From the IMG/VR virus record IMGVR_UViG_3300029843_000117: a stretch of 17,145 nucleotides of DNA; one strand, written 5' to 3'. The position numbers were made by a program, and so were the translations under genes. How positions within the stretch are numbered: position 1 is the first letter of the stretch; each line of letters starts with the position of its first letter. This DNA comes from a virus. Taxonomy: Duplodnaviria > Heunggongvirae > Uroviricota > Caudoviricetes. Shown in pieces: positions 1-17,145 of the stretch. The notes below the pieces were generated by a model. The model did not search any database. It saw nothing but the letters and a program-made list of their open reading frames with translations, and was not told the DNA's origin.

Positions 1-162
1 TGGATGCAGCGCAGTCAGCAAACGCTCGAACAATGGTTTGAACCCGGAACCGCCCGCGCGCTTGATGCGTTTATTGAGGGGATGACGCTGCATTTTGTCA
101 CCGACCGTAAGCCGCTATCGCGCGAGGAGATTTTGAGGATGGTTGAGAGGGTTGCAGGGTAG
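1..162 (+). CDS. 3' end of an upstream chromosomal gene (partial; start lies outside the window)
   Basis: Frame 1 is open from position 1 to a TAG stop at 160-162 (..[34 protein letters not shown]). It lies outside the inferred prophage boundary. By synteny with rybB it could be the TetR-family gene ybjK/rcdA, but that is not verified. Confidence 0.45.
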
Positions 163-178
163 TAGATAAGTTTTAGAT

Positions 179-192
179 AACAAAAAACCCAT
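179..192. repeat. Left copy of the 14-bp direct repeat; candidate attL core
   Basis: aacaaaaaacccat is identical to 17066-17079. It lies between the chromosomal gene stop (162) and the int stop (267). Confidence 0.6.
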
Positions 193-211
193 TTATGTAA
201 ACGGGTTAATG

Positions 212-244
212 AAAACAATAAGTTAGGTTAAAAACAATAAGTTA
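212..244. repeat. Two perfect 14-bp direct repeats (aaaacaataagtta) spaced 19 bp apart; possible Int arm-type or accessory-factor sites in the arm next to int
   Basis: Copies at 212-225 and 231-244, read directly from the sequence, located between the att core and the 3' end of int. The function is inferred only. Confidence 0.35.
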
Positions 245-266
245 AGTTGGTGGTCAGTGGTGGTTA

Positions 267-1319: not shown

Positions 1320-1320
1320 A

Positions 1321-1346
1321 AAAAGCCCTCATATCAGAGGGCTAAA
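1321..1346 (-). terminator. Hairpin plus U-tract on the minus strand between the cargo gene and the int start
   Basis: Minus strand reads agccctc-tgatat-gagggct followed by ttttt, immediately before the int ATG. May attenuate read-through from the upstream cargo gene and cI. Confidence 0.3.
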
Positions 1347-1401
1347 TTTAACTGTATATGTAACCAGTAATCAATGTGTGATTACTATGAAACATACATT
1401 G

Positions 1402-3078
1402 CTAAGCAACATGTAGTTCATCGTTGGCGGAAGTGGCTGCTTTGCGCTCCTGCTCAATAGCTAGAGACTCTCTATATTCTTTCGCCTCTGCAAACATTGT
1501 CCAGTGGGCGTTGATGTTCATGTCTTCAATAACTGATTTGATTTCTTTTAAATTTACGTTAAAAAACTCTTTTCGTGAGTTAATTTTATTGACCTGCTTT
1601 TCGTTGAAAACTTTATGCAGATGGTTTTCTAATGATGGTGCATCATCACTATAAATCATCGCATGAACATCGAACGAAAAAGGAACACTAGCATCTCCGA
1701 GTTCACGAACACGATCAAGTGGTTCAAGGCGGCGTGTCATTCCAATTTTATATACATCTTCGCCAAATGAACCAATATTACTAATGATATAGACGTGGCC
1801 TGATCTGGTTTGTTGAGCCATAGAAATAGCTCGTTGATTTTTAGCTTCAGCTTCTTCATATTTTAACTGTAGTTCAGCTATTTTTTGCTCTAAAGCTAAG
1901 CGTTGTTCTTCATTTGCAAGCATAAGTTCTTTCGTTGCTTTATTTATAGCTTGCTGAATAGCTTTTTCTTCTTTTTCAGCTTCTTTTATCGCTTTTTCAT
2001 ATTCTCTACGAGCTCTTTCCTCTTCACGAAGCTGTTCTTTAATCCTTCTTTGCTCTTCTTTTTCTTCGAGCATAATTTCATTAACTGCTACACCCCATTT
2101 TAGCTCGTTGAGTCTTGCCTGAAGATAGATGTCACTTATTTTTGCGGACCTAAAGGCAGAGCCATTGTAATTTACTAGTTGAAATGCATCTTTTATTTCT
2201 TGGGAAAGTTTTCCAAAATTGTTGTGTTTGACTTTTGATAAAATACTGTCAACTCTTCCATTGAAGGCATCCAAAACAAAGTTTATGGCAGTATTACGCC
2301 TGTTTTGCTCAACATAATCACACGAAGCAGCTTTATTAGTTTTTATTAATGATTTGGTTAACTCTCTGGCTTTTTGTAATTCCTTGCCTGCATCTGTAAA
2401 TTCATAATTTTCTGCCAGCTCATCAAGTACACTACGGTTAGGGATGATCCATTCATCACCATAACCTTCAATTTTATTTTTCATTGATTTTGCAACTGCT
2501 TCATATTTTTCTGCAAACTCTTTAGCTTCATATGCTGAACCAGCAATCTCCTTTGCTCTTTCTTCTGCATCAGAAATAATTTTTACTGCATTGTCATTAG
2601 CATTTGAGATTAGCTCATTTGCTTTATTATTAGCATTATCAAGACGTTCTTTGGCTTTCAGGCGTGCATCGCGAGCGTCTTTGGTGATTGCTATAGCTTC
2701 GCTATTAGCGTTGCTTATTGTCATCTGAGCTTGATAATTTGCTTCGTTTACTGTTTTAGCCGCCTTAATTTGGGCTTCATCTATTTTTTGCTTGGCTATT
2801 GAGTCCGCATTTTTTATCTTATTCTCTGCATCCATTACTGCGCTGTGCAATTCTTCGTATTGCCACAATGGTGCTGCTCGCCCTTCAAGCTCTGATAATT
2901 CTCGTACGGTCTGTGCTAGTTTTTCTTGATTTTCAATCAGTTGGTTAGAAAGGGCTATGTTGTTAGCTGTCAGGTTATCTATAGCCGCTTTGTGTTTTTT
3001 ACTTTGTTTAAATAATATTACAGCTAGAACAGGGGCGAGAAATGCTAATAAGAGTATAACGATGGCAAATGAATTCAT
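1402..3078 (-). CDS. Cargo protein: N-terminal transmembrane helix, long coiled-coil region, C-terminal T5orf172/GIY-YIG-like domain (DUF4041-type architecture)
   Basis: 558-aa ORF. N-terminus is hydrophobic (FAIVILLLAFLAPVLAVILF). The middle is K/E/A-rich with heptad-like pattern. The C-terminus reads GHVYIISNIGSFGEDVYKIGMTRRLEPLDRVRELG..., resembling the T5orf172 (GIY-YIG-like) signature. Visibly AT-rich relative to neighbours. A plausible RBS (aaggat) lies upstream, and it ends 20 bp before the cI stop. Confidence 0.8.
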   Translation of the reverse strand: MNSFAIVILLLAFLAPVLAVILFKQSKKHKAAIDNLTANNIALSNQLIENQEKLAQTVRELSELEGRAAPLWQYEELHSAVMDAENKIKNADSIAKQKIDEAQIKAAKTVNEANYQAQMTISNANSEAIAITKDARDARLKAKERLDNANNKANELISNANDNAVKIISDAEERAKEIAGSAYEAKEFAEKYEAVAKSMKNKIEGYGDEWIIPNRSVLDELAENYEFTDAGKELQKARELTKSLIKTNKAASCDYVEQNRRNTAINFVLDAFNGRVDSILSKVKHNNFGKLSQEIKDAFQLVNYNGSAFRSAKISDIYLQARLNELKWGVAVNEIMLEEKEEQRRIKEQLREEERARREYEKAIKEAEKEEKAIQQAINKATKELMLANEEQRLALEQKIAELQLKYEEAEAKNQRAISMAQQTRSGHVYIISNIGSFGEDVYKIGMTRRLEPLDRVRELGDASVPFSFDVHAMIYSDDAPSLENHLHKVFNEKQVNKINSRKEFFNVNLKEIKSVIEDMNINAHWTMFAEAKEYRESLAIEQERKAATSANDELHVA

Positions 3079-3098
3079 TTTAAAATCCTTTTACTATA

Positions 3099-3695
3099 TT
3101 AATTCGAGACTATTGTACTTCTTATACAAGCAACCACTTCAATATCAGAAAATGCACATTCAAAGCTATTCTCTGCTGTTGTAATTTTAATCATTCCTTT
3201 AGGAAGCCTTGTGATTTTTCGAATGGAATAGGTTCCGTCGATATTGATTAACCAGTTTCCATCAAGTACTTCAGAAAATTTTTGATCACAAATGTATGTG
3301 ACGAGTCCATCCTGAACAACAATTGGTGATGAAAGGTTTGCAGGAAGAAATGATGAATCGAAGACATATGAACCGTCTTCAATCATTTTGCCTGCGGCAA
3401 GGCGAAACTTAACAAGCTCTTCTGTAGCTGCTGTCAGCGAGCTTTGCTTAAGGCCTTGTCCGGTAGTTAACCATTTGAGGGAGGTTCCTGTTTCAAGAGC
3501 ACATTGGATTATCCAGTCAGCAGGAAATGTATCCCGCAAATACCTGTTCGCTAGTGTGCTTTTTGATACTTCCAAGTGATCAGCTAAAGCCTGTCGTGTC
3601 GTAAAGCCATAGGCTTCGACTAATCGCTCAATCGCAGCCTTACCACCTTTATTGGGATTTATTTTGATCTCACTTGGGTACTTTGATGTTGACAT
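3099..3695 (-). CDS. cI: Phage 186 CI-like immunity repressor (N-terminal HTH, C-terminal oligomerisation domain)
   Basis: 198-aa ORF with an HTH-like N-terminus (GFTTRQALADHLEVSKSTLANRYL). Size and position (divergent from apl/cII, upstream of int) match 186 cI. Confidence 0.7.
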   Translation of the reverse strand: MSTSKYPSEIKINPNKGGKAAIERLVEAYGFTTRQALADHLEVSKSTLANRYLRDTFPADWIIQCALETGTSLKWLTTGQGLKQSSLTAATEELVKFRLAAGKMIEDGSYVFDSSFLPANLSSPIVVQDGLVTYICDQKFSEVLDGNWLINIDGTYSIRKITRLPKGMIKITTAENSFECAFSDIEVVACIRSTIVSN

Positions 3696-3717
3696 ATCTC
3701 TTTTGCGATCCTAGTAT
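3689..3717 (+). promoter_or_regulatory. Candidate sigma70 lytic promoter (pR-like): TTGACA, 17 bp spacer, TAGTAT
   Basis: -35 ttgaca at 3689-3694 (overlapping the cI start codon on the opposite strand) and -10 tagtat at 3712-3717, oriented toward apl/cII. Confidence 0.4.
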
Positions 3718-3724
3718 CAGTTTT

Positions 3725-3740
3725 GTACCCAATTGGGTAC
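3725..3740. promoter_or_regulatory. Perfect 16-bp palindrome GTACCCAATTGGGTAC; candidate repressor operator
   Basis: Lies immediately downstream of the putative pR -10. A half-site-like ttgggtac recurs at 3674-3681. Confidence 0.45.
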
Positions 3741-3790
3741 TTGTCACGATTACTACAGGCTCACCACAAGCCAATAGGAGATGTTGCATC

Positions 3791-4012
3791 ATGACCCCTA
3801 ACATTTCAATAACTCTGAATACGCCACACGTCACAATCGAGCGTTATAGCGAACTTACTGGTCTTTCAATCGACACAATCAACGATATGTTGGCGGATGG
3901 TCGCATTCCTCGGCATCGTCTTCGTAAAGACAAGAAAAGAGAAAAGGTAATGATCAACCTTGCTGCTCTTACCGTTGATGCACTTACTGATTGCAATGTT
4001 GTATTCAACTAG
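3791..4012 (+). CDS. apl: Apl/Cox-like excisionase and transcriptional regulator
   Basis: 73-aa ORF from an internal ATG, with RBS aggag at 3776-3780. It is the first gene of the rightward operon opposite cI. The ORF-track start at 3674 would overlap cI and is unlikely. Confidence 0.6.
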
Positions 4013-4044
4013 TTCCATTTTGGGATACATCAGAGGTGTCGACC

Positions 4045-4554
4045 ATGTTTGATTACCAAGTTTCCAAACATCCACATTTTGATGAAGCCTGTCGTGCATT
4101 CGCACTGCGCCACAATCTGGTGCAACTGGCAGAACGTGCGGGCATGAATGTGCAGATTCTGCGGAACAAGCTGAACCCAGCTCAACCTCATTTATTAACC
4201 GCACCAGAAATCTGGCTGCTTACCGATCTGACTGAAGATTCAACGTTGGTAGATGGTTTTCTGGCACAGATTCATTGTCTGCCATGTGTACCGATTAATG
4301 AGGTAGCAAAAGAGAAACTGCCGCATTACGTCATGAGCGCAACTGCAGAGATCGGGCGTGTTGCAGCAGGTGCGGTATCTGGTGATGTAAAAACTAGTGC
4401 CGGTCGTCGTGATGCTATCAGCAGCATTAACTCTGTAACACGACTGATGGCTCTGGCTGCTGTTTCATTGCAAGCCCGTTTACAGGCTAATCCTGCGATG
4501 GCGAGTGCAGTTGATACCATGACTGGCCTTGGTGCTTCATTCGGTTTGCTGTGA
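4045..4554 (+). CDS. cII: CII-like lysogeny establishment regulator
   Basis: 169-aa ORF starting [24 protein letters not shown], with RBS agaggtg at 4031-4037. Size and position match 186 CII. Confidence 0.6.
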
Positions 4555-4561
4555 GGTGTTT

Positions 4562-4858
4562 ATGCTGACGAAAGAACCATCATTTGCATCGCTGCTGGTA
4601 AAACAAAGCCCGGCAATGCACTACGGTCACGGCTGGATCACGGGTGAGGATGGAAAACGCTGGCATCCATGTCATTCACAAGATGAATTGCTGTCTGAAT
4701 TGACCACGAGGAAACGGAGAAAGTCCAAATGTATGCGGCAGAAAGTGAAGTGGTTTATCAGTTTCGTTACAGAGGGGAGAGTTATTCAGTACCTGAAGGT
4801 GATTTGCTCTGTTGCTATCCGTCATTGTCGGGCGATGGCAGTTACTTTTTCACGTTAA
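4562..4858 (+). CDS. Hypothetical early protein (3' extent uncertain)
   Basis: ATG with RBS gaggtg at 4553-4558. The N-terminal part looks protein-like, but the last ~40 codons overlap the next ORF and look like out-of-frame read-through. Confidence 0.35.
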   Translation: MLTKEPSFASLLVKQSPAMHYGHGWITGEDGKRWHPCHSQDELLSELTTRKRRKSKCMRQKVKWFISFVTEGRVIQYLKVICSVAIRHCRAMAVTFSR

Positions 4859-4953
4859 AGGATGGGACGTTTTTACGGGGAGAGCAGGTTAAAGAGACGA
4901 TACGAAAAAATGTATCTCCTCTTGAGCGTTACCGTAAGAACAAAGAACGATAG
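4729..4953 (+). CDS. Hypothetical early protein
   Basis: 74-aa ORF, RBS ggag about 10 nt upstream, balanced composition. Overlaps the previous ORF by 130 nt. Confidence 0.45.
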   Translation: MYAAESEVVYQFRYRGESYSVPEGDLLCCYPSLSGDGSYFFTLKDGTFLRGEQVKETIRKNVSPLERYRKNKER

Positions 4954-4975
4954 CTGCGTTTGGGGGATATGAAGT

Positions 4976-5317
4976 ATGGCAATTAATGGCGCTGCAGCAA
5001 CTGTTCCATTAAGCCCCGGTGAACGCCTGAATGGACTTAATCACATTGCGGAGTTAAGGGCGAAAGTTTTTGGCCTGAATATTGAGTCAGAGCTTGAGCG
5101 GTTTATTAAAGATATGCGTGATCCACGGGATATCAATAATGAACAAAATAAACGGGCACTGGCTGCCATATTCTTTATGGCAAAAATTCCAGCTGAACGT
5201 CATAGCATCAGCATTAATGAGCTGACCACTGACGAAAAGCGGGAGCTGATTAAAGCAATGAATCATTTTCGTGCAGTGGTGAGCTTATTTCCCAGACGGC
5301 TAACCATGCCGAATTAA
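4976..5317 (+). CDS. Hypothetical early protein
   Basis: 113-aa ORF with RBS ggggga 8 nt upstream, in the same orientation as the early operon. Confidence 0.55.
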   Translation: MAINGAAATVPLSPGERLNGLNHIAELRAKVFGLNIESELERFIKDMRDPRDINNEQNKRALAAIFFMAKIPAERHSISINELTTDEKRELIKAMNHFRAVVSLFPRRLTMPN

Positions 5318-5384
5318 CCAACTAATGAAATTAATGGCGTAAACCCGCCGGGCATCCCTTTATCTAAATTCAGGAGAATTGATT

Positions 5385-5618
5385 ATGCGTAATATTGAAA
5401 CCCTCACGACTAAAACCGGACCGGATGACGCAGGGCTTAATATTTTACTGACAGAGGCTCGTCTGGAAGAACGCCGGGCAAGGGCTGAAGCAATGGCTGC
5501 TCGCCTTGATAGCCTGGCGTGTCATATCTCATCCCGCCAGCTAAACCACGTGGAAGCGGCAGAACTGCTGCGCGTGACTGCTGAAGCAATCCAGAACGAA
5601 GCGCAGGAGATCCACTAA
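5385..5618 (+). CDS. Hypothetical early protein
   Basis: 77-aa ORF from ATG at 5385, with RBS caggag at 5371-5376. Its stop overlaps the next start (ATAATG). Confidence 0.55.
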   Translation: MRNIETLTTKTGPDDAGLNILLTEARLEERRARAEAMAARLDSLACHISSRQLNHVEAAELLRVTAEAIQNEAQEIH

Positions 5619-5845
5619 TGGCTGATGCAATGGATCTCGTACAGCAGCGCGTTGAAGAAGAACGCCAGCGCCATATCCGTGCAGCCCGTGCCAAATCACC
5701 GGGCGTGTCACGCGTACTTTGCATTGAATGTGAAGCGCCAATTCCGCCAGCACGACGCCGCGCCATTCCGGGAGTGCAGCTTTGCATTACCTGTCAGGAA
5801 ATCGCAGAACTGAAAGGCAAACATTACAACGGAGGTGCTGTATGA
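5618..5845 (+). CDS. TraR/DksA-family C4-type zinc-finger protein
   Basis: 75 aa with CIECEAP..(17)..CITCQ, a CxxC-N17-CxxC arrangement typical of phage and plasmid TraR-like proteins. Translationally coupled to its neighbours. Confidence 0.75.
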   Translation: MADAMDLVQQRVEEERQRHIRAARAKSPGVSRVLCIECEAPIPPARRRAIPGVQLCITCQEIAELKGKHYNGGAV

Positions 5846-6699
5846 GCACCATCCTGAAATGGGCGGGAAATAAAACCGCCATTATGCCAGAACTGAAAAA
5901 ATACCTTCCTGCTGGCCCGCGACTGGTTGAACCTTTCGCGGGTTCCTGTGCTGTGATGATGGAAACGGATTATCCCAGCTATCTGGTTGCGGATATTAAT
6001 CCTGATTTAATCAACCTCTATAAAAAGGTTGCCGCTGATTGTGAATCGTTTATATCTCGCGCCAGAGTTTTATTTGAGATCGCAAACAGGGAGGTGGCTT
6101 ATTACAACATAAGGCAGGAGTTTAACTGCTCAACTGAAATTACTGATTTCATGAAAGCGGTATATTTCCTGTATCTCAATCGTCACGGTTACCGTGGTTT
6201 ATGTCGCTATAACAAGAGCGGGCATTTCAACATTCCCTACGGTAATTATAAAAATCCGTATTTCCCTGAAAAAGAACTTCGCACATTTGCAGAAAAAGCC
6301 CAGCGAGCAACGTTTATCTGCGCCAGCTTTGATGAAACGCTGGCGATGTTGAAGGCGGGAGATGTGGTGTATTGCGATCCGCCATATGACGGTACGTTTT
6401 CCGGCTATCACACTGATGGTTTCACTGAAGATGACCAGTATCACCTGGCATCCGTTCTTGAACATCGGTCATCAGAAGGACATCCGGTCATTGTTTCTAA
6501 CAGTGACACATCCCTGATCCGTTCGCTGTATCGCAATTTTACTCACCACTATATCAAGGTAAAACGCAGCATCGGTGTGGCAGCTGGCGAGGGTAAATCA
6601 GCAACAGAAATCATTGCTGTTTCCGGGCCGCGCTGCTGGATGGGATTTGATTATTCGCGTGGCGTGGATAGTTCTGCCGTGTACGGAGTACGTGCATGA
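5842..6699 (+). CDS. dam: DNA adenine methyltransferase (Dam-like, N6-adenine)
   Basis: 285 aa from ATG 5842, with RBS ggaggtg at 5831-5837. Contains the SAM-binding motif ILKWAGNK near the N-terminus and the catalytic DPPY motif ([10 protein letters not shown]). Confidence 0.85.
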
Positions 6700-9136
6700 G
6701 TCATGCCGATATGAACAACTGCTGCGGCTTTAACGAGGCTGCCGCAGCATTCTCATGGAACAGCCCGAAAAAGGCCATTAACCCTTATCTGGACCCGGCG
6801 GAAGTTGCGCCGGTTTCTACGCTTTCAAACCTGATCACTCTGTACGCTGCCGATAACGAGCAGGAACAGTTGCGCCGCGAGGCACTGAGTGATCAGGTCT
6901 GGGAGCGTTATTTCTTTAATGAATCACGTGATCCTGTCCAGCGCGAAATGGAGCAGGATAAGCTCATTAGCCGGGCAAAGCTGGCGCATGAGCAGCAGCG
7001 TTTTAATTCAGACATGGTCATTCTGGCGGACGTCAACGCCCAGCCTTCCCATATCAGCAAGCCGCTGATGCAACGTATTGAATACTTCAGCAGCCTGGGC
7101 AGGCCAAAGGCTTATTCCCGCTATTTACGTGAGACGATTAAGCCATGTCTGGAACGACTGGAGCATGTACGCGACAGTCAGCTATCTGCATCTTTTCGCT
7201 TTATGGCAAGCCATGAAGGGCTGGACGGCCTGCTGATCCTGCCTGAAATGAGTCAGGATCAGGTGAAACGCCTGTCCACCTTGGTAGCTGCGCATATGAG
7301 TATGTGCCTTGATGCAGCTTGTGGTGATTTGTATGCCACCGATGACGTTAAGCCAGAAGAAATCCGCAAGACATGGGAAAAGGTGGCAGCGGAAACCCTG
7401 CGTCTGGATGTCATCCCACCTGCGTTTGAGCAACTCCGTCGGAAAAGAAACCGCCGTAAACCCGTGCCGTATGAACTCATTCCGGGTTCGCTGGCGCGTA
7501 TGTTGTGCGCCGACTGGTGGTATCGGAAATTATGGAAGATGCGTTGCGAATGGCGGGAAGAGCAGTTGCGCGCTGTTTGCCTGGTCAGCAAAAAAGCATC
7601 TCCTTATGTCAGCTATGAAGCCGTGATGCATAAACGTGAGCAGCGCCGTAAGTCGCTGGAGTTTTTCCGTTCTCATGAACTGGTGAACGAAGACGGCGAC
7701 ACGCTGGACATGGAGGATGTGGTAAACGCCAGCAGCAGCAACCCTGCGCATCGCCGCAATGAGATGATGGCCTGTGTTAAAGGTCTGGAGCTTATCGCGG
7801 AAATGCGCGGTGACTGCGCCGTTTTCTACACTATCACCTGTCCGTCGCGTTTCCATTCCACGCTAAATAACGGCAGACCAAACCCGACCTGGACAAACGC
7901 GACGGTAAGACAAAGCAGCGATTATCTGGTCGGCATGTTTGCTGCATTTCGTAAGGCGATGCACAAAGCCGGGTTGCGCTGGTATGGCGTGCGGGTGGCT
8001 GAGCCGCATCATGATGGCACAGTTCACTGGCACCTGTTGTGTTTCATGCGCAAAAAAGACCGCCGTGCCATCACTGCATTACTGCGTAAGTTTGCCATCC
8101 GTGAAGACCGCGAGGAGCTGGGCAATAACACTGGGCCGCGCTTTAAGTCTGAGTTGATTAACCCGCGCAAAGGAACGCCGACAAGCTACATCGCGAAATA
8201 TATCAGTAAGAACATTGACGGTCGTGGTCTGGCTGGCGAGATCAGCAAGGAAACGGGTAAATCTCTGCGTGATAACGCTGAATACGTGAATGCCTGGGCG
8301 TCTCTGCATCGTGTTCAGCAATTCCGCTTCTTTGGTATTCCGGGGCGTCAGGCTTACCGTGAACTTCGCTTGCTGGCTGGTCAGGCGGCAAGGCAACAGG
8401 GTGACAAAAAAGCAGGTGCGCCGGTACTGGATAACCCGCGTCTTGATGCCATTCTGGCTGCTGCTGATGCTGGTTGTTTTGCCACCTACATCATGAAGCA
8501 GGGCGGCGTACTGGTTCCCCGTAAATATCACCTCATCAGAACCGCTTATGAAATCAACGAAGAGCCGACCGCCTATGGCGATCACGGCATTCGTATTTAT
8601 GGCATCTGGTCACCCATTGCAGAGGGCAAGATCTGCACTCATGCAGTGAAGTGGAAAATGGTTCGTAAAGCCGTTGACGTTCAGGAGGCGGCAGCCGACC
8701 AGGGCGCTTGCGCCCCTTGGACTCGTGGCAATAACTGTCCCCTTGGACTCGTGGCAATAACTGTCCCCTTGCTGAAAATTTGTACCAACAAGGGAAAGAC
8801 AAATCAGCTGATGGGGATACCAGAACGGATATCACCCGCATGGATGACAAGGAATTGCACGATTACCTGCACAGTATGAACAAAAAAGAGCGTCGGGAAC
8901 TGGCTGCAAGGTTACGCCTGGTGAAACCGAAACGGCGTAGAGACTACAAACAGCGAATTACAGATCATCAGCGACAGCAGCTCGTCTATGAACTGAAGTC
9001 CAGAGGATTTGATGGCAGCGAGAAAGAGGTCGATTTACTCCTTCGCGGCGGCAGCATTCCGTCAGGAGCAGGCCTGCGTATTTTCTATCGGAACCAGCGT
9101 TTGCAGGAAGATGATAAGTGGCGGAACCTGTATTAA
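6696..9136 (+). pseudogene. A: Replication initiation endonuclease A (P2 gpA-like, HUH rolling-circle initiator), frameshifted by a 26-bp tandem duplication
   Basis: The frame-0 ORF 6696-8879 (727 aa) carries the HUH-like motif TVHWHLLCF and the tyrosine motif YIAKYISK. Downstream, ORF 8780-9136 in frame 2 continues the protein exactly if one 26-bp repeat copy (8739-8764) is removed, which would give a continuous ORF of about 804 aa. Confidence 0.75.
8713..8771. repeat. Tandem direct repeat: 26-mer ccccttggactcgtggcaataactgt, two full copies plus a partial 7 bp
   Basis: 8713-8738 and 8739-8764 are identical base for base, and 8765-8771 repeats the first 7 bp. 26 is not a multiple of 3, so the duplication shifts the A reading frame. 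Confidence 0.9.
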
Positions 9137-9228
9137 TTACGCGGGTTAACAATTCGTGCTCTTAATAATACCAGGTATATCAGGCTGATGAACGTAAAAA
9201 AACGTTTTACATCAGTAAGATTATTATA

Positions 9229-9248
9229 TACTGTAAATATAAACAGTG
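9229..9248. promoter_or_regulatory. LexA box (SOS operator): TACTGT-N8-ACAGTG
   Basis: tactgtaaatataaacagtg matches the consensus CTGT-N8-ACAG with an AT-rich spacer. It overlaps a -10-like tatact/tatata and lies about 45 bp upstream of the ORF at 9290. Confidence 0.7.
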
Positions 9249-9289
9249 GTTATGCATACAGTATTGCTTGTGGTGTCATAGGAGGAAAG

Positions 9290-9478
9290 ATGCAGGACTA
9301 TTTTTTGGAGTCTTTGAAGCTCCAGCGCATTGATTTTTTTCTTAAGCTTGTAGCGGCTAGTGAGTGTAGTGATGAAGAGAAGGGGCTGGCCCTGCAGTGG
9401 GTTTCTGAACTGACAGATGAACTCATGGCAAAAATCAGAACCCACGAATACAACCGCTCAATGGATGTCATCAGCTGA
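9290..9478 (+). CDS. Small hypothetical protein, first gene of a putative SOS-inducible operon (Tum-like region)
   Basis: 62 aa from ATG 9290, with RBS aggagga at 9280-9286, downstream of the LexA box. Confidence 0.5.
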   Translation: MQDYFLESLKLQRIDFFLKLVAASECSDEEKGLALQWVSELTDELMAKIRTHEYNRSMDVIS

Positions 9479-9488
9479 GGTGACTTTT

Positions 9489-9722
9489 ATGCGCATTGAA
9501 ATAATGATCGATAAAGAGCAGAAGATTAGCCAGTCTACCCTGGACGCCCTTGAATCCGAGCTTTACCGCAATCTGCGCCCCCTGTATCCCAAAACGGTAA
9601 TTCGCATTCGCAAAGGTAGCTCTAACGGTGTGGAACTGACCGGACTGCAACTGGACGAAGAAAGGAAGCAAGTGATGAAAATTATGCAGAAGGTGTGGGA
9701 AGACGACAGCTGGCTGCATTAA
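9489..9722 (+). CDS. DinI-family protein (DinI/Tum C-terminal-like)
   Basis: 77 aa: MRIEIMIDKEQ..LDALESELYRNL..YPKTVIRIRKG...KQVMKIMQKVWEDDSW. Resembles E. coli DinI as recalled (MRIEV..IDALAGEL...WESADDW). RBS gaggtg at 9477-9482. Confidence 0.7.
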   Translation: MRIEIMIDKEQKISQSTLDALESELYRNLRPLYPKTVIRIRKGSSNGVELTGLQLDEERKQVMKIMQKVWEDDSWLH

Positions 9723-9752
9723 GAAACGTTGCCCCCAAGAGGATTCATTCTG

Positions 9753-9923
9753 ATGGGGGACTATTTTGGGCAACGAGTGAAACGAGGCGTTAGGTGGACG
9801 GCCATTTTGATAAGTGATCGTCCGCTTTTTGTTCTGAGTTCAAGCGATGGATTTAACACACTGGTTGAAGCAGAAGTATCTAAGTTCAATTTATATTATT
9901 TGAAGGGCACTGGTCTGATGTAG
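9753..9923 (+). CDS. Small hypothetical ORF
   Basis: 56 aa from an internal ATG with RBS aagagga at 9737-9743. No recognisable motif. Confidence 0.25.
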   Translation: MGDYFGQRVKRGVRWTAILISDRPLFVLSSSDGFNTLVEAEVSKFNLYYLKGTGLM

Positions 9924-10009
9924 TACGATTTTTGCCGGAGATGGCATGTTCTATATTGATCTCATCCATATAATGATTGGTATTATTAGCTTAGTTTAAA
10001 GAGGATTGA

Positions 10010-11587
10010 ATGGATATCAACTATGTTGTTTCAAAAATGGGGTTCGTAGATGATCTTATTAATGCAGGTTCATTTGATTCTGCCTATAAAAATGTAAAGG
10101 ATATTCTTAACGGTATCGATGAGATAAATACAATCAAAGAAAATAGAATAATTATATTATCTAATTTGGCCGGAAATCTTATTGATATCGGAAGTTTTAG
10201 TAATGTAAAAAATATAGCGGAGGAAGGCTTAAATATCTTTATAAACAATAAAAATGAATTTCTGACTATAATGAAAGAATCCTTATATTACTATAACTTG
10301 GCAAATGGAATGAGCGCAGTTCTTGATTTTAATCCTAATGACAATGCAGATATTGATAGTTTCATTAAGCTGAATGATGTAAAAAATAATTACTGGAAAG
10401 CGTTTAAACTTTCACAAGAAGATGGATGGGTGCCCCCTGATTTAATAGTTAATCTAGCTAATGTATTAAAAAAACAATATCGTATATCTGAATCAATGGA
10501 TTATTATGAACAAGCAATATCTATTGATAACTCAATTCCTCAGGCGTGGGTAAACAGATCTGAGGCATTAGAATTGCTTAATGAATTATCTACAACATAT
10601 ACATATAAAATGATTAAAGAAGTTATTCGAGGTTATGAGTGTGCAATAAAGTCAGGGAAATGTTTTCCTTCATGGAAGGTTGCTCTTCAAAGAAAAATAA
10701 AGTACAACGAAAGTATATTGAGTGAATCATGTGTATATGGCATAGAGGATATAAGTACAGATGAAAGGCTCACGCAGGAGGAGTATGATACTTTATCAAA
10801 CTACCAGAGGTTTTGTATAGATAATAATCTAATGTTGTCTGATCATTCGCTATATTGCAATTGTTATGCGTCATCTAAAGATAATATAACTATTGCTACC
10901 ACCGAGGAAGGTGTGTTTGGTGATTTTATAGTGCCAATGGAAATGGTGTTAAATAGACTTAAAGCTGAGTATTCCTTAGCACGAAAAATGTTTTTTGAAT
11001 ATAAGGTTGATAGTGAGTTTTTTGATGAGGATTCGGAGGTATGTTATTCTGAATTGTATAATGGAGAAATATTGTATGAAAATGTTGAGAAGTTAAGGGT
11101 TGCATTTAGAGCTTGCTTTGGTATCTTGGATAAAATAGCAGTTGCTCTGTGTCAATTATTTGATTTAAAACCAGATAGAGGACATATATACTTTCATAAC
11201 TTCTGGCGGATTAGTGATGAAAAAAGAAAGCTTAAAATAAACAAAATAAATAATAAAGGATTGCTGGGTTTGTTTAGTATTGCTATGGATTTGAATGATA
11301 AAAATGGTGAGCTTGCTTTTTTTAAAGAATGGAGGAATGATTTAGAACATAAACTGTTAGTTATTCACGAGAAAGACATGTTAGTTGATTTATATAATTC
11401 TTATGGGTTTTTTGATGAGGTGAGGTTTATTGAGAAAGAAAAGTTTGAGAAACAGCTCTTACAACTCATGAAAATTGTGAGATCAGCCGTTATTCTTTTT
11501 GTGTTTACCATACGTATAGAGGGGAAAAAAAGTATTCCTAAAGATATGTTGACCATTAAAAATACCATCGAGAGAAAAGTATTGTAG
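10010..11587 (+). CDS. Cargo protein with TPR-like N-terminal region and C-terminal HEPN-like domain (Rx4H motif); candidate abortive-infection or defence RNase
   Basis: 525-aa ORF, strongly AT-rich. RBS gagg at 10001-10004. TPR-like segment SMDYYEQAISIDNSIPQAWVNRSEALELLNE. C-terminal FFKEWRNDLEHKLLVIHEKD contains R-x4-H, the HEPN signature. A perfect -10 TATAAT lies at 9969-9974. Confidence 0.8.
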   Translation: MDINYVVSKMGFVDDLINAGSFDSAYKNVKDILNGIDEINTIKENRIIILSNLAGNLIDIGSFSNVKNIAEEGLNIFINNKNEFLTIMKESLYYYNLANGMSAVLDFNPNDNADIDSFIKLNDVKNNYWKAFKLSQEDGWVPPDLIVNLANVLKKQYRISESMDYYEQAISIDNSIPQAWVNRSEALELLNELSTTYTYKMIKEVIRGYECAIKSGKCFPSWKVALQRKIKYNESILSESCVYGIEDISTDERLTQEEYDTLSNYQRFCIDNNLMLSDHSLYCNCYASSKDNITIATTEEGVFGDFIVPMEMVLNRLKAEYSLARKMFFEYKVDSEFFDEDSEVCYSELYNGEILYENVEKLRVAFRACFGILDKIAVALCQLFDLKPDRGHIYFHNFWRISDEKRKLKINKINNKGLLGLFSIAMDLNDKNGELAFFKEWRNDLEHKLLVIHEKDMLVDLYNSYGFFDEVRFIEKEKFEKQLLQLMKIVRSAVILFVFTIRIEGKKSIPKDMLTIKNTIERKVL

Positions 11588-11909
11588 TATATTTTCATCG
11601 AGCGATGAAACGGTCTGTTTTTCTTTATAGTTTTGTCATAAAAAAGAGATTTCCTGCTTAAAATTTGGCTATTACAGAGCAACTATGTATGTTCCTCGCT
11701 CACAGTAGAGCTTCATCTTTGTAAGTCTGTATGTTTCGTTTTTCAAGTGGTCATTCAGATACGGACTTTCACTTCTCTTAGACAGTGCATGACTATGCTG
11801 CATGAAATCGCATGATCGTTTAAGGATCGTTTTTGCTAAGGCTCGCCAGAACTAGCGGGCTTTTACGTAGAACATGCAGGTGCATGAAAACCACTACATA
11901 AAGCGGGCA

Positions 11910-11928
11910 GGCGTGGCGGGGATACGAG
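11910..11928. other. Candidate cos site (cohesive-end sequence) of the P2/186 type
   Basis: ggcgtggcggggatacgag begins with GGCGTGGCGGGGA, matching my recollection of the 186/P2 19-nt cohesive end (GGCG[A/T]GGCGGGGAAAGCA.). The location between the accessory region and the 3' end of Q matches the P2 map. Confidence 0.5.
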
Positions 11929-12133: not shown

Positions 12134-12430
12134 ATGAAAACTACTTATAGCTATGATTTTCAATATATGCGCAAAGGTCAGGATCGCCCTGATGATGATG
12201 GAGAGGTTGTAGGGTGTAATTCAGAAGACAACTCGCTTTTGATGCTTCCAAATGTGGGAGACTACGTAACAATTACGAATAAGGGTGGGCGTGCTCAATT
12301 TGATGGGCGGGTGAAAACAAGGCTTTTCAATTACCTACGCATTGCTGATGGTCATGTTCATTGCTCCATTTGCATTGTAGTTGAGGAAGTTGATATGGAC
12401 TCCGTATGGGGGGCACTAATTAAAGAATAA
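12134..12430 (+). CDS. Hypothetical 98-aa protein between cos and Q
   Basis: ORF with a weak RBS and no recognisable motif (contains HCSIC). It occupies a space that is short and non-coding in P2 as I recall it. Confidence 0.4.
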   Translation: MKTTYSYDFQYMRKGQDRPDDDGEVVGCNSEDNSLLMLPNVGDYVTITNKGGRAQFDGRVKTRLFNYLRIADGHVHCSICIVVEEVDMDSVWGALIKE

Positions 12431-12460: not shown

Positions 12461-13501
12461 TTACTCAGAAATATCTAAGTTGTAAGATTCAAAGCAAATC
12501 ACTTTTTCACCTAGCCAGTTGTTCAGCTCTTGCAGCCGCTTTTGCAGTGGCATCAGTTCATTGCGGACAAACACTCGACTAGCCTTCTCCACATCCCCAA
12601 ACCCCCCGACATTATTAGGCATTATCCCCATCATTTGTGGCGGCACACGATGCGCCGCCATCATGTCGTCCCGGCTCACGTTCTTGATATTCAGGAACTC
12701 ATCCTTCGCCGCCACTTCTGACAACGGGATAATCTGAAGCCCGTCCTTTTTACCGTTAGGCGAGTACATAAACAGGTTACGGAAGTTACCAGGACCTTTG
12801 GCGCTTTTCATCGCATTGCGGAGGTTGTTCACATCCTCCTGGTTCTGCGCAGCATCGGTCATGTACATGATGAAGCCTGCATGACTGCCGTTAATGTAAT
12901 ACTTGCGGCGGAACAGCGTGGCGGACTCGTTGAGCAGAGCTGACGGAATGGCAGAAAGATAACCGGGCAGGCCGTAGATCTCCTGGTTAATGTCCGGTTC
13001 CATTAGATGAAAAATGCTGCCTTTCGTGAACTGATACGGCTGGGTTGTCATACCGTATTGCACAAACCAGTAGGTATCCAGGTCTAACCCGCGTCGGGTG
13101 TATTTTGCCAGTGCAGGCTCAAGGGCGATAACTTCACCGAAGCGGTTCGTGCGTTTCTCCAGGTAGGCGTTACCAAAAACCAGATAGTCCTGCACAAAAC
13201 GCGAAAAAGCCTGCTGGCTGAGCAGCGGGTGAGGGATGTAGGTGCTGGTCAGAATGTTGCACTTCACTGCAATCGGTGAGCTGTGATGCACGGCGGCGCG
13301 GAAGGTTCGCGCCAGTCCGTCGAAACTCACAGGCGGCTCATACCAACGATCCATCTGTACGCATTCCACATAGTCCAGCAGTTCGCGGCGGTCCAGAACA
13401 GGAACGGGATCACCGAAGCTGAATGCTTCGGCTGAAGTCTGGCTTTTATGCTGGATCTGTTTCGTCGACGCAGCGCGGTTCTTCTTACTCTTTCCCATCA
13501 A
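12461..13501 (-). CDS. Q: Portal vertex protein (P2 gpQ-like)
   Basis: 346 aa (P2 Q is about 344 aa as recalled). Leftward orientation and a 4-bp overlap with the upstream terminase gene match the P2 QP operon. Confidence 0.85.
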   Translation of the reverse strand: MMGKSKKNRAASTKQIQHKSQTSAEAFSFGDPVPVLDRRELLDYVECVQMDRWYEPPVSFDGLARTFRAAVHHSSPIAVKCNILTSTYIPHPLLSQQAFSRFVQDYLVFGNAYLEKRTNRFGEVIALEPALAKYTRRGLDLDTYWFVQYGMTTQPYQFTKGSIFHLMEPDINQEIYGLPGYLSAIPSALLNESATLFRRKYYINGSHAGFIMYMTDAAQNQEDVNNLRNAMKSAKGPGNFRNLFMYSPNGKKDGLQIIPLSEVAAKDEFLNIKNVSRDDMMAAHRVPPQMMGIMPNNVGGFGDVEKASRVFVRNELMPLQKRLQELNNWLGEKVICFESYNLDISE

Positions 13502-15264
13502 AAAATCTCCACAATATTGCTGGTATTGGCGGACTCGCCCTGCAGCGGTTCGTTAAACAGTGCGTGCATTGTTGCCCAGGCCAGATCGGCATGGCTGGCT
13601 TCTTCGCTGCGGCTGGCTTCATAGGTCGGGCGGTTGCCACTGGCAGTGGTAGCGCGACGGATTGCCATAAATGACTGCGCAATGTCGGTGTGCCCGGCGT
13701 CAAACTCCAGACGGCGGTGGCTGATAATGTCGTAGGCCTTGAGTACCAGGGCGTTTTTAACGTTGGGGTTGTAGACAAACTCCCTGACGGCAGGAAAAAA
13801 CGCTTTCACGTTCTCGTAAACCCCGTGACCGACGCCGGTCGAGTCGATGCCGATATAGGTCACGTTGTACTGTTCGGTCAGTTTTTTGATGGCGTCAGCC
13901 TGGGCGCGGAAGTCCATCCCGCGCCACTGGTGACGCTCAAGAATGCGGAACTTACCACCCGGCACGGCTGGCGGAGCCACCACCACGCATCCGGCACTAT
14001 CGCCGTTCTGCGTACCTTTTGCCGGGTCATAACCGATCCACACCTCGCGCCAGCCAAACGGGCGCAGCGCCAGTGCATGAAAGTCGGTCCAGACTTCCCA
14101 GCTGTCCACCATGCACGCCTGCAGCTCGCTGAGCGGAAACACGGACGCGAGATCGTCCACAAACTCGCACATCAGCAGGTTCTGGTATTCGTCCGGGCTG
14201 TACTCCATGCGCAACTGGTCAAGGTCGAACAGGTTACAGCCGCCGCGCACCGCATCTTCCACGGTGACTATCTGGCGGTATTGCCCGTCTGCGCACAGCA
14301 GGCCGGGGGCCAGATTGCTGTGGGACAGGTCGATGTCCACCTTATCGGCTTTGTTGCGCCCACGGTTGAACAGCGCACCGGACCAGAACGGATAAGCACT
14401 GTGTGTCAGACTGGATGGCGTGGAAAAATAGGTTTGTCGCCATTTTTTGTGAATAGCCATACCGGAAGCCACTTTGCGCAGCTCCTGGAATTTCGGTATC
14501 CAGAAATATTCATCCAGATACAGGTTGCCGTGGTAACTCTGGGCCGTGCGGGCATTGGTGCCGAGGAAGTAAAGCGTGGCCCCGTTAGGAAGCACCATCG
14601 GATCGCCTTTCAGCTCCACCTCCACTTCTTTGGCAAAGTCGATGATGTACTGTTTAAAGACGTGAGCCTGAGCCTTGCTGGCAGAAAGGAAAATCTGGTT
14701 ACGCCCGGTCAGCAGGGCGTCAATCAGGGCTTCACGGGCAAAGTAAAAGGTCGCGCCGATCTGGCGAGACTTCAGCAGGTTGCGGATGCGATTGGTTTTT
14801 CCGGCTTCCCACCAGTGGCGCTGGTAGTTGAACATGGAGGAATGGAAGATTTCTTCCAGCTTCTCAATCTGTTCATCGGTGAAAACATTCTTTTCCGGCT
14901 GACGGCGCGGGCCTTTGTTGCGGTTGGCGACGTTAGGGTTTAAGTCGGCTTCGTTGCCGCCATTGTTAAACTTGCCGATGCGCGCGTGGCGCTCCGACTG
15001 GCGCGCCAGCAGGTCAATCTCTTTGAAATCTTTCCCTTCTTTGTGCTCCTTCATAATGAGCTGGCAGTAGCGTGCGGCGGTGGTGAGCTGCATCTGATCC
15101 AGCGGCCCATAGTCACCCCACTTGTCGCGTTTTTTCCAGCTATGAACGGTTGCAACTTTCTCGCCCAGCATTTCAGCAATGCGGGCGACGCGGTATCCCT
15201 GAAAGTACAGCAGCATGGCCTGCCGACGGGGATCGAGATCTGCGGGTGTCAGTGTGGTGTTCAT
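13498..15264 (-). CDS. P: Terminase large (ATPase) subunit (P2 gpP-like)
   Basis: 588 aa (P2 P is about 590 aa as recalled). Divergent from O across a 142-bp intergenic region, as in P2. Confidence 0.85.
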   Translation of the reverse strand: MNTTLTPADLDPRRQAMLLYFQGYRVARIAEMLGEKVATVHSWKKRDKWGDYGPLDQMQLTTAARYCQLIMKEHKEGKDFKEIDLLARQSERHARIGKFNNGGNEADLNPNVANRNKGPRRQPEKNVFTDEQIEKLEEIFHSSMFNYQRHWWEAGKTNRIRNLLKSRQIGATFYFAREALIDALLTGRNQIFLSASKAQAHVFKQYIIDFAKEVEVELKGDPMVLPNGATLYFLGTNARTAQSYHGNLYLDEYFWIPKFQELRKVASGMAIHKKWRQTYFSTPSSLTHSAYPFWSGALFNRGRNKADKVDIDLSHSNLAPGLLCADGQYRQIVTVEDAVRGGCNLFDLDQLRMEYSPDEYQNLLMCEFVDDLASVFPLSELQACMVDSWEVWTDFHALALRPFGWREVWIGYDPAKGTQNGDSAGCVVVAPPAVPGGKFRILERHQWRGMDFRAQADAIKKLTEQYNVTYIGIDSTGVGHGVYENVKAFFPAVREFVYNPNVKNALVLKAYDIISHRRLEFDAGHTDIAQSFMAIRRATTASGNRPTYEASRSEEASHADLAWATMHALFNEPLQGESANTSNIVEIF

Positions 15265-15310
15265 GGCACAAACCTACAGCCTTGAATGAAGGCTTTCCCC
15301 GCCTGCGGTT

Positions 15311-15328
15311 TGTGTGGTTGTCGGTACA
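15311..15328. promoter_or_regulatory. TGT-N12-ACA element in the P/O intergenic region; candidate Ogr-dependent late-promoter activator site
   Basis: tgt-gtggttgtcggt-aca, centred about 55-60 bp upstream of a plausible O transcription start. P2 late promoters carry TGT-N12-ACA near -55 as recalled. Confidence 0.4.
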
Positions 15329-15406
15329 AATACCGCGCATTGTTTCACTGCCCCCATCACCGCAACCATAAGGCTCCAGTAAGTTTTTTCTAACGGAGCA
15401 CGGCTC

Positions 15407-16174
15407 ATGACAGTGAAAGCAAAGCGTTTTCGCATCGGGGTGGAAGGTGCCACCACCGATGGACGCGAAATCCAGCGTGAATGGCTGGAACAGATGGCAG
15501 CCAGCTACAACCCGGCGGTGTATACCGCGCTGATTAACCTTGAGCACATCAAGTCTTATCTGCCGGACAGCACCTTTAACCGCTACGGCAAGGTGACGGC
15601 GCTGTTTGCTGAAGAAATTACGGAAGGTCCGCTGGCAGGCAAGATGGCATTGTATGCCGACGTTGAGCCAACGGAGTCCCTGGTGGAACTGGTGAAAAAA
15701 GGCCAGAAATTATTCACCTCTATGGAAGTCAGCCCGAAGTTTGCTGATACGGGCAAAGCCTACCTGGTCGGCCTGGCTGCCACTGATGATCCAGCCAGTC
15801 TGGGTACGGAAATGCTGACATTCAGCGCCAGTGCAGCCCATAACCCGCTGGCAAACCGCAAGCAGAATCCTGCCAATCTCTTTACCGCTGCAGAGGAAAC
15901 GGTGATCGAACTGGAAGAAGTCCAGGATGACAAACCGTCCCTGTTTGCCCGCGTCACGGCGTTGTTTACCAAAAAAGAGCAGTCCGATGACGCCCGGTTC
16001 GCTGATGTGCATAAGGCCGTGGAGCTGGTCGCCACTGAGCAGCAGAACCTGAGCGCACGCACCGAAAAATCCCTGTCTGAGCAGGAAGAACGCCTGTCTG
16101 AACTGGAGACTGCTCTGCAGGAGCAGCAATCTGTTATTCATCCGGCAGGGGCAGGGCAAAAGCGCCACTGGTAA
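15407..16174 (+). CDS. O: Capsid scaffolding protein (P2 gpO-like), probably 3'-truncated
   Basis: 255 aa. The N-terminus MTVKAKRFRIGVEGATTDGR resembles P2 gpO (..KFFRIGVEGDTCDGR as recalled). P2 gpO is about 284 aa, and this ORF ends abruptly (..HPAGAGQKRHW*) just before a D-like fragment. Confidence 0.7.
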   Translation: MTVKAKRFRIGVEGATTDGREIQREWLEQMAASYNPAVYTALINLEHIKSYLPDSTFNRYGKVTALFAEEITEGPLAGKMALYADVEPTESLVELVKKGQKLFTSMEVSPKFADTGKAYLVGLAATDDPASLGTEMLTFSASAAHNPLANRKQNPANLFTAAEETVIELEEVQDDKPSLFARVTALFTKKEQSDDARFADVHKAVELVATEQQNLSARTEKSLSEQEERLSELETALQEQQSVIHPAGAGQKRHW

Positions 16175-16184
16175 ACCACTGCCG

Positions 16185-16679
16185 GTGATCACTATCACAC
16201 GGAAGGACGGCGACAGTCACCGCTTTACCCTGGCAGATCGCGGAGCCTACACGGGCGTAATTGCCAGCTGGTTGCATACCCGCGAACCCGCGAAGAAAGA
16301 AAGCACCACGGTGAAGCGTAAGCGCAGGACTAAGAAGCAGAAGAAAGAGCCGGAAGCGAAGCAGGGCGATTACCTGGTGGGGACGGATGAAAACGTGCTG
16401 GTACTTAATCGCACTTATGCCAACCGGAGCAACGCCGAACGAGCGGCGAAAATGCAGTGGGAACGCCTGCAACGCGGTGTTGCGTCATTCTCGCTACAAC
16501 TGGCGGAAGGTCGGGCAGATCTCTACACGGATATGCCTGTGAAGGTCAGTGGCTTTAAACAGCCGATAGATGATGCGGAATGGACCATTACCACCCTGAC
16601 ACATACTGTCAGCCCGGATAATGGTTTTACGACCAGTCTGGAGCTTGAAGTGAGGATTGATGATTTCGAAATGGAATGA
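16185..16679 (+). pseudogene. D: C-terminal fragment of tail protein D (P2 gpD / late control D family)
   Basis: 164-aa ORF immediately upstream of ogr, as D is in P2. It has no proper start context (GTG at 16185, upstream frame open but unrelated). Several kb of structural genes expected between O and D are absent. Confidence 0.55.
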
Positions 16680-16769
16680 TTCTTCGCAATGGAGAACTTT
16701 TAAGTTTGCAAAATGGAATAATGCGGTATCATTATTGTGAATTTAGCAAAAATGGGGAGAACTCGAAAA

Positions 16770-16988
16770 ATGATGATTTGCCCACTGTGTGGAAGTGCCG
16801 CCCATACTCGCAGCAGTTTTCAGGTATCTTCATTGACCAAAGAGCGTTACAACCAGTGCCAGAACATTAACTGCAGCCATACTTTTGTTACCCATGAAAC
16901 TTTTGTTCGTTCGATTGCAACGCCAAAAGAGTCAAATCCGGTTCAGCCGCATCCAATGAAATCAGGACAGGTGGCGCTCTCTCTTTGA
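16770..16988 (+). CDS. ogr: Late gene transcriptional activator Ogr (zinc-finger)
   Basis: 72 aa from ATG 16770, with RBS ggggaga at 16754-16760. MMICPLCGSAAHTRSS..KERYNQCQNINCSHTF..PHPMKSGQ resembles P2 Ogr (MFHCPLCQHAAHARTS..KERYHQCQNVNCSATF..PHPLPSGQ as recalled). Confidence 0.85.
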   Translation: MMICPLCGSAAHTRSSFQVSSLTKERYNQCQNINCSHTFVTHETFVRSIATPKESNPVQPHPMKSGQVALSL

Positions 16989-17065
16989 CTCTGCCGCCAT
17001 TTTGTCGCCATCGTTAAAAAACAGTGTTTCTAACATCATGATTTTAAACAGCTTAAATTTCAGGC

Positions 17066-17079
17066 AACAAAAAACCCAT
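17066..17079. repeat. Right copy of the 14-bp direct repeat; candidate attR core
   Basis: aacaaaaaacccat is identical to 179-192 and overlaps the 3' terminator of the sRNA at 17069-17145. Confidence 0.6.
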
Positions 17080-17145
17080 CAACCTTGAACCGAAATGGCG
17101 GGGTTGATGGGCTCCACAAAATGGGGACATCAAAGAAAAGCAGTG
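17069..17145 (-). ncRNA. rybB: RybB small RNA (sigmaE-dependent Hfq-binding sRNA); its first ~2 nt lie beyond the window
   Basis: The minus strand reads cactgcttttctttgatgtccccattttgtggagcccatcaaccccgccatttcggttcaaggttgatgggtttttt, matching RybB as I recall it (GCCACUGCUUUUCUUUGAUGUCCCCA...GGUUGAUGGGUUUUUU). It ends in an intrinsic terminator hairpin (cccatcaacc / ggttgatggg) plus a U6 tract. Confidence 0.8.

Follow-up and report, generated by a model that had tools for sequence, protein, structure and literature searches.

P2-like prophages that sit at the small RNA gene rybB have already been described in Escherichia coli W, B and Crooks under the name Rybb* (PMC3032704). Together with the prophage of E. 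coli N10 and the Klebsiella phages KP12 and 4LV2017, these are the intact relatives of the element considered here, which lies in a viral DNA record of 17,145 nt (IMG/VR, IMGVR_UViG_3300029843_000117; "the window" denotes this whole stretch as analyzed). The relatives share with the element its integration site and its gene order, and are 96–98% identical to it in nucleotide sequence to either side of the junction that we describe below. They differ from it in possessing an 18-kb block of genes from N to U and full-length O and D genes, as well as in the cargo carried between int and cI and between A and Q. A P2 remnant at cyaR in E. coli K-12, termed 'ogr-D'' (Table 2 in PMC3032704), likewise has a C-terminal fragment of D and ogr left beside attR, following an internal deletion. 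That remnant has, however, lost all else, whereas the element in the window, at rybB, retains the whole early half of the genome along with Q, P and a truncated O (O'). The satellite P4, which depends on P2 structural genes, is also small and integrative and has a cos of the P2 type. Here, however, no P4-type genes were seen among the ORFs scanned, and the element is a straight deletion of a helper-type genome, with a broken replication gene. When all of the explanations discussed below are considered, we find it highly probable that a rybB P2/186-like prophage of about 35 kb suffered a single illegitimate deletion of 18.0 kb, from O723 to D552 across GCAA (positions within genes are given as gene name and nucleotide number), and that the left endpoint of this deletion is recurrent and, as we infer, set by a hairpin.

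To map the junction, the window was compared by BLASTN with the intact prophage of E. coli N10 (L005), which occupies the same chromosomal locus and served as the reference. Window positions 15300–16129 correspond to the P/O region of N10 up to nt 723 of the 834 nt of O (97.3% identity), while positions 16126–17145 correspond to N10 from nt 548 of the 1101 nt of D through ogr, attR and the flank (97.7% identity). The two blocks are collinear and overlap by 4 nt (GCAA, 16126–16129), with 18,019 bp of N10 lying between them. A three-way alignment of the window, N10 O and N10 D presents these four bases as a microhomology common to O nt 720–723 and D nt 548–551, and BLASTN of positions 15300–17145 against phage records gave a clean split at query position 827–830. 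To the left lies O' (15407–16174, + strand; Pfam Phage_GPO, E = 2e-105), a truncated scaffold/protease gene of 255 aa that covers profile positions 2–234 of 268, the C-terminal 34 positions being absent. It consists of 241 O codons, corresponding to 241 of the 277 residues of N10 O, and of 14 codons read out of frame from D DNA (SVIHPAGAGQKRHW, followed by a stop). To the right lies the 3' half of the tail gene D (D nt 552–1101; 16130–16679, + strand; 97.7% nucleotide identity to N10 D), a pseudogene fragment without a natural start of its own. The D frame (16128–16676) matches positions 153–302 of the 305 in the Phage_GPD profile, namely the C-terminal half, and keeps 183 of 366 codons. A 164-aa open reading frame (ORF) starting with GTG at 16185 is the C-terminus of gpD, opened at the first in-frame start codon within the fragment, and homologues have a full-length O of 277 or 270 aa.

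A first-pass annotation of this DNA, made from the sequence alone, had proposed that a truncated O is fused to a C-terminal fragment of D, followed by ogr, and that the element arose by deletion from a P2/186-family prophage. The two BLASTN blocks and the Pfam matches bear out the former proposal, and the collinearity of both junction sides with intact prophages at the same rcdA/rybB-ybjL site supports the latter. The interval that had been flagged was 16130–16200; alignment with the intact N10 prophage places the breakpoint at 16126–16129/16130, at the left margin of the interval. The D-like fragment does not follow the end of O after about 10 bp, as had been thought, but rather D homology begins at the junction itself. 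Nor can the ggcaggg/gcaggg microrepeat (16144–16156) mark the breakpoint, as it is present in intact D genes and is, therefore, native D sequence. Comparison of the same locus across strains revealed both intact and deleted forms.

Relative to N10, everything from N to U is absent. The missing block comprises the last 111 nt of O, followed by N, M, L, X, holin, lysozyme, lysB, lysC, R, S and a cargo gene, and then V, W, J, I, H, the tail-fibre assembly genes, the invertase, FI, FII, E/E', T, U and the first 547 nt of D. The annotation had correctly anticipated the loss of N, M and the head completion, lysis and tail genes, although its estimate of 14–16 kb falls short of the actual 18.0 kb. 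Its view that these missing genes explain the 16.9-kb size of the element fits the spacing of the att cores (16,887 bp). What is retained is int, cI, the early operon, two defence-type cargo genes, cos, Q, P, the truncated O' and ogr. As the capsid gene N, the small terminase gene M, the head completion, holin, lysozyme and spanin genes, and the tail and baseplate genes (V to U) have been lost, and with neither O nor D at full length, the element is a grounded prophage that can neither form particles nor lyse its host. The endpoints share only the 4-nt GCAA, no direct repeat links them, and no insertion sequence, foreign DNA or recombinase site is found at the junction. Read from these features, the joint of O to D is a homology-independent, illegitimate one. 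The same O723::D548 junction is also present in the complete E. coli genome GPT21-003_1 (L001, NZ_OY754834.1).

Sequences related to O or D were found in about 1,200 of 5,426 complete E. coli genomes. A query spanning P-O'-'D-ogr selected 15 genomes in which O/N and U/D/ogr lie close together, and the junctions of these were then mapped. Apart from GPT21-003_1, with O723::D548 and the joint GCAA as in the window, O802 was used three times as the left end, in each case with the joint TA, namely in O802::D670 (two isolates), O802::D793 (PSJ-16) and O802::D980 (WP2-S18-ESBL-08). ChlosBP-23-1 presents O744::D707 with the joint AA, 7-nt microhomologies are seen at O781::D342 in MB7671 and at O77::T2603 in EC50, and filler bases are found at N101::U101 in UMNF18 and at N360::D989 in six enterotoxigenic E. 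coli (ETEC) genomes. As mapped from the sequences, all of these are ordinary illegitimate joints, with 0–7 nt of homology.

The 90% protein clusters that contain O' hold many truncated gpO proteins, all of which break after '...ETALQ(E/A)QQ' (O nt 720–723) and then continue into differing tails. At the DNA level, at least nine different junctions use O720–723 as their left end, mostly through 2–4 nt of homology. The left end '...CAGCAA/' (here and below, a slash in a sequence marks a break or nick) is joined to D548 in the window and in GPT21-003_1, to V214 in L022, to inv264, in the middle of the invertase gene, in L013, to T2527 in L018, to R244 in L019, to a tail-fibre-region sequence in L016, and to K345 in L028, which carries a third O allele. 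In L024, the left end is O721, joined to K159 in the lysozyme gene. Of the eight O723 partner sites with an available reference sequence, seven have AA or GCAA microhomology; the tail-fibre partner of L016 has no such reference, while the K159 joint at O721 shares zero bases. Deletion sizes among the deleted forms range from 2.5 to 18 kb. One further candidate, L030 (P0009), was excluded as its assembly is ridden with frameshifts. A short-query protein search for the junction tails returned only short ORFs, one of which (P0004) gave a further case, and searching JGI metagenomes, GTDB species representatives and IMG/VR with exact patterns gave no match to this junction or to any other at O723.

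The P-O' arms of the O723-type elements differ from one another by 2–3% and, in distance matrices, do not cluster by junction type, with three different O alleles being represented. Common ancestry of the O723-type elements is ruled out by these matrices. Judged by such sequence comparisons, O nt 720–723 and, to a lesser extent, O802 are shown to be true recurrent breakpoints, serving as the left ends of deletions that occurred independently in diverged prophages. In literature searches on P2-like prophage remnants and rybB integration, we found no report of recurrent breakpoints at O720–723 or O802. The choice of partner is not determined mainly by the length of the microhomology, as none of the five CAGCAA and twenty AGCAA sites of the late region was used. 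Within the 18.6 kb of this region, the 9-mer GGCAATCTG (window 16125–16133) is found only twice, at V214 and at D548 (6740 and 19033 on the reverse complement of N10), and both copies are O723 partners. A two-step route might thus exist, in which an O723::V214 element would collapse to O723::D548 via the 8-nt repeat. About 30 nt upstream of the hot spot (window ~16070–16105, CTGTCTGAGCAGGAAGAACGCCTGTCTGAACTGGAG), an in-frame indel of 21 nt, flanked by direct repeats of 8 nt (CTGTCTGA), distinguishes the full-length gpO alleles of 277 and 270 aa and looks like a slippage polymorphism. In L028, a JGI metagenome contig, O nt 1–297 are inverted and fused to P (5699–6111).

Immediately 5' of the junction, the + strand contains a small hairpin (CTGCTC-TGCAG-GAGCAG, 16110–16126), for which folding with DNA parameters gives -6.0 kcal/mol and a 3-nt 3' tail (CAA). 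When the 30 nt ending at each O position were folded in this manner over O nt 300–834, the two best 3'-terminal hairpins were those at 802–805 (TACCGCC...GGCGGTA, -6.7 kcal/mol) and at 720–723 (-6.0 kcal/mol). The second haplotype also folds at the O723 site (-7.3 kcal/mol, with a 2-nt tail). The right-hand endpoints, folded likewise, presented no hairpin pattern. We infer from this that the recurrent endpoint is set by a small + strand hairpin that defines or protects a 3' end 0–3 nt past its stem. In such a process, the 3' end of the + strand would be trimmed back to the hairpin, or would fold there, through an exonuclease stop or the fold-back of a free or nascent 3' end. The 0–3-nt tail could then anneal to any downstream site with 2–4 matching bases, after which synthesis or ligation would complete the deletion. 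As joining could be primed anywhere that 2–4 bases match, a fixed left end and variable right ends would be expected. The chromosomal fork, which we take from the gene order and the known positions of oriC and dif to pass through the locus from left to right in K-12 coordinates, would make the + strand the lagging-strand template, and P2 rolling-circle replication displaces the + strand too. That deletion hot spots are associated with hairpins is an old general idea. In E. coli, hot spots near palindromes or hairpins, from studies of lacI, pBR322, M13 copy-choice and illegitimate recombination, reportedly have their endpoints at the foot of the hairpin, with very short microhomology and independently of homology. 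The lacI, pBR322 and M13 deletions are, however, said to be mostly short, to lie between direct repeats flanking a palindrome and to come from laboratory constructs, whereas the present events are natural, recur across lineages and join a fixed end to a second one at a distance of 2.5–18 kb.

This reading has some drawbacks that need to be considered. With a more liberal metric, which takes the best of 20–50-nt windows over the whole of O and 420 nt of N, both sites rank only within the top 8–14%, Fisher's combination over seven distinct endpoints gives p ~0.02, and comparable hairpins occur elsewhere in O. The statistical support for the link between hairpins and endpoints is, therefore, only moderate and depends on the metric used. 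The break is again at O723 in the third allele (L028) despite a weaker predicted hairpin (-4.3 kcal/mol), which could indicate that the determinant is sequence-specific rather than structural. It should also be noted that cases entered the hot-spot sample either as truncated O proteins or as junctions near D; the sample covers rightward deletions only, and no endpoints from elsewhere in the prophage. Finally, some nested junctions could be successive deletions within one lineage rather than primary events.

Several other explanations were weighed against this one. The O723 and O802 ends might be produced by a site- or structure-specific nick, introduced by the gpA HUH initiator at hairpin-flanked pseudo-origins on the ori strand or by a host nickase, which would turn into a one-ended break and be followed by microhomology-primed restart. 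Such a nick would account for an end that is precise to the nucleotide in three O alleles, one of which has the weaker hairpin. In P2 and in this phage, moreover, the genuine ori nick lies 4–6 nt 3' of a hairpin of -5.4 to -6.0 kcal/mol on the + strand, which is the O-coding strand, and both recurrent sites read A/AC and then GC-rich sequence. However, the ori nick site CCTTG/GACTCG (CCTCG/GAGTCC in P2) is unlike either CAGCAA/ACCGCC or GCGGTA/ACGCCC, so that neither site has the sequence of a gpA pseudo-origin, and what is shared with ori is limited to an architecture of a hairpin plus a short tail. Strand transfer by gpA also predicts junctions to the ori sequence, none of which were seen, and gene A is frameshifted in this element, although this may be a later event. 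We thus consider nicking to be quite unlikely. A somewhat different question is whether the window and GPT21-003_1 share O723::D548 by descent, with their flanking haplotypes having later been overwritten by recombination with P2-like phages. Their junctions are indeed identical, and P2-like prophages are mosaic (relative to L002, window 1–9732 is 99.2% identical and 12489–16128 is 95.6% identical). Nonetheless, four linked sites distinguish the two sequences in a 28-nt stretch of O, and three sites do so in a 40-nt stretch of D. Differences are found 6–7 nt away from the junction on its left and 22 nt away on its right, and conversion tracts from intact phages would need to have ended within a few bases of the heterology on both sides. 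Both haplotypes are also found in intact or differently deleted prophages, and the host flanks differ by 1.0% over 9.1 kb. The divergence between the two D fragments is almost entirely at third codon positions and, therefore, predates the loss of D function. As the left end is independently recurrent in any case, and as both late-region GGCAATCTG sites were used, such that a repeat-assisted route to the same junction exists, shared descent is unlikely and, on the evidence of these haplotypes, the O723::D548 junction probably arose more than once.

Three further alternatives were considered. Recombination at a specific site or between homologous sequences, be it through Int at a secondary att or a Cin/Hin-type tail-fibre invertase at a quasi-site, would be in line with the resemblance of GCAAACC in O to the invertase crossover half-site CCAAACC and with most partner sites carrying AA, the usual central dinucleotide of such sites. 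At these cix-like sites the crossover would, however, be expected after AAACC, 4 nt to the right of the actual break. The partners D548, inv264, T2527, R244 and K345 do not resemble cix sites, and one of them is within the invertase gene. The att core CAACAAAAAACCCAT is unrelated, and endpoints that share only 4 nt exclude homologous recombination. The break site showed no similarity to cos, and by inspection no Chi was seen near the ends. Recombinase action is, accordingly, extremely improbable. We give practically no credence to a metagenome misassembly or to a different mosaic element in place of a deletion. The window does match metagenome-assembled contigs, but a 4-nt overlap cannot produce a de Bruijn join, and both flanks align collinearly, at 97–98% identity, with intact prophages that occupy this site. 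The junction is genuine and not an assembly artefact, because human-gut metagenome contigs built from independent read sets (Logan ERR16029784; ENA ERZ918372/ERR912130) match the window at 100% identity and because the same junction is found in a complete genome. Lastly, one could regard the half-size element as a functional, selected mini-P2 that is mobilised by a helper like a satellite and packaged, for example, as a dimer. It does keep int, cI, ori, cos, Q, P and ogr, its 16.9 kb is about half of the ~35 kb of the intact phage, and several independent deletions end within the O-to-D interval. Yet gene A is frameshifted here, and decay has gone further in sister forms. GPT21-003_1 carries an inverted segment inside a rearranged A and a partly duplicated P (rearrangements at 7943–10357 and 14892–17365), L006 has lost most of P, L022 has A fused to the P/O region, and extra T deletions are found in sister forms. 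With sizes from 2.5 to 18 kb, moreover, no particular deletion size was selected. The satellite genes sid, psu, delta and alpha (primase) were found neither among the ten largest ORFs examined with Pfam nor in the annotation of the closest relatives. On account of the gene A frameshift, the further decay in sister forms and the varied deletion sizes, the element looks like a decaying prophage rather than a satellite, and a selected mini-P2 is very improbable.

On its own, the junction is ordinary prophage decay, a new instance of the well-known grounded prophage. For annotation purposes, O' and 'D should be treated as pseudogene fragments. The hot spot itself represents a natural deletion system, in which a left end fixed to the single nucleotide has been joined to many different partners in numerous independent E. 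coli lineages. As such, it could be used to test how large illegitimate deletions originate in vivo, through hairpin-limited ends, nicks or microhomology priming, and how prophages become grounded while immunity and anti-phage cargo persist. More tentatively, O720–723 and O802 might be built-in fragile sites of rybB-type P2-like prophages, at which a structure- or enzyme-defined 3' end, possibly from an HUH-initiator or host nick, repeatedly triggers one-directional loss of the late genes; we regard this as possible, if rather doubtful. Were it true, such prophages would become harmless carriers of defence genes by a recurrent, quasi-programmed route rather than by random decay.

With respect to its surroundings, the window is a segment of the E. 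coli chromosome that reads rcdA, the 16.9-kb P2/186-like prophage, and rybB-ybjL. The 3' end of the host gene rcdA (ybjK) is found at 4–162 on the + strand, as supported by the K-12 gene order and by its annotation just upstream of the integrase in L002 and L003, to which window 1–9732 is 99.2% identical. In the K-12 map, the order is rcdA-rybB-ybjL, with rcdA and rybB being adjacent. The att core (TAAGTTTTAGATAACAAAAAACCCAT) is present as a direct repeat (D7), with attL at 167–192 and attR at 17054–17079. The two copies are imperfect, being 85% identical, and are spaced by 16,887 bp. The host small RNA gene rybB (17066–17144, - strand; Rfam RF00110, 105 bits) overlaps the att core with its 3' end. 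The prophage sits in this 3' end, namely the terminator, with attR restoring a full RybB and attL holding a diverged, partial rybB copy. Sharp mosaicism is also apparent, as window 1–9732 is 99.2–99.3% identical to PSJ-16 and MB7671 while the Q-P-O' arm (12489–16128) is only 95.6–95.8% identical to them. The prophages of these two strains carry deletion junctions that differ from each other.

The assignment of the element to the P2/186-like phages (Peduoviridae) is based on several features. These are int and the flanking att-core repeats at a known site, the 3' end of rybB; a gpA-type rolling-circle initiator gene, now frameshifted, with an internal ori that aligns to the P2 nick site; and divergent late operons, with Q-P leftward and O rightward, together with ogr beside attR, all collinear with P2 and N10. 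The integrase gene int (267–1319, - strand) was recognized by Pfam Int_N and Phage_integrase. It is followed by a cargo defence gene (1402–3078, - strand) with DUF4041 and T5orf172 domains in Pfam, assigned by PADLOC to PD-Lambda-1 (E = 2e-120), and by a CI-type repressor gene (3099–3695, - strand), annotated as 'phage repressor protein CI' in the 99% identical L002 and L003. The early operon includes a Dam-type methylase and the replication gene A (6696–8879, + strand; Pfam Phage_GPA, E = 6e-128). The latter is truncated by a frameshift, encoding 727 rather than 804 aa, because of a 26-bp tandem duplication at ori. The duplicated 26-mer spans the ori nick region (CCCCTTG/GACTCGTGGCAATAACTGT, twice, 8713–8764, + strand; repeat D4), as aligned to the P2 ori nick, the position of which (29892) was taken from the annotation of the P2 record. 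The duplication is perfect, is flanked by the 7-nt repeat CCCCTTG, yields two copies of the putative nick site, and is missing in three relatives.

Further along, a cos-like region (11878–11922, + strand; GGCGTGGCGGGG at 11910) presents an 82% match to the P2 cos region. It is followed by the portal gene Q (12461–13501, - strand; Pfam Phage_portal) and the large terminase gene P (13498–15264, - strand; Pfam Terminase_5, Terminase_6N and Terminase_6C). Beyond the D fragment lies the late-gene activator ogr (16770–16988, + strand; Pfam Ogr_Delta, E = 5e-22). The variable slot between A and Q contains a 525-aa cargo gene with an LA2681-like HEPN domain (10010–11587, + strand; Pfam PF18733, E = 2e-38) and an unannotated 98-aa ORF (12134–12430). 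In relatives, the slot between int and cI, which here carries the DUF4041/T5orf172 gene, is occupied by other genes, such as that of a SNIPE-associated protein, or is empty. The A-to-Q cargo is different in every relative examined and includes retron Ec78-type, GmrSD, HIRAN and STAS-like genes, AAA ATPases and reverse transcriptases.

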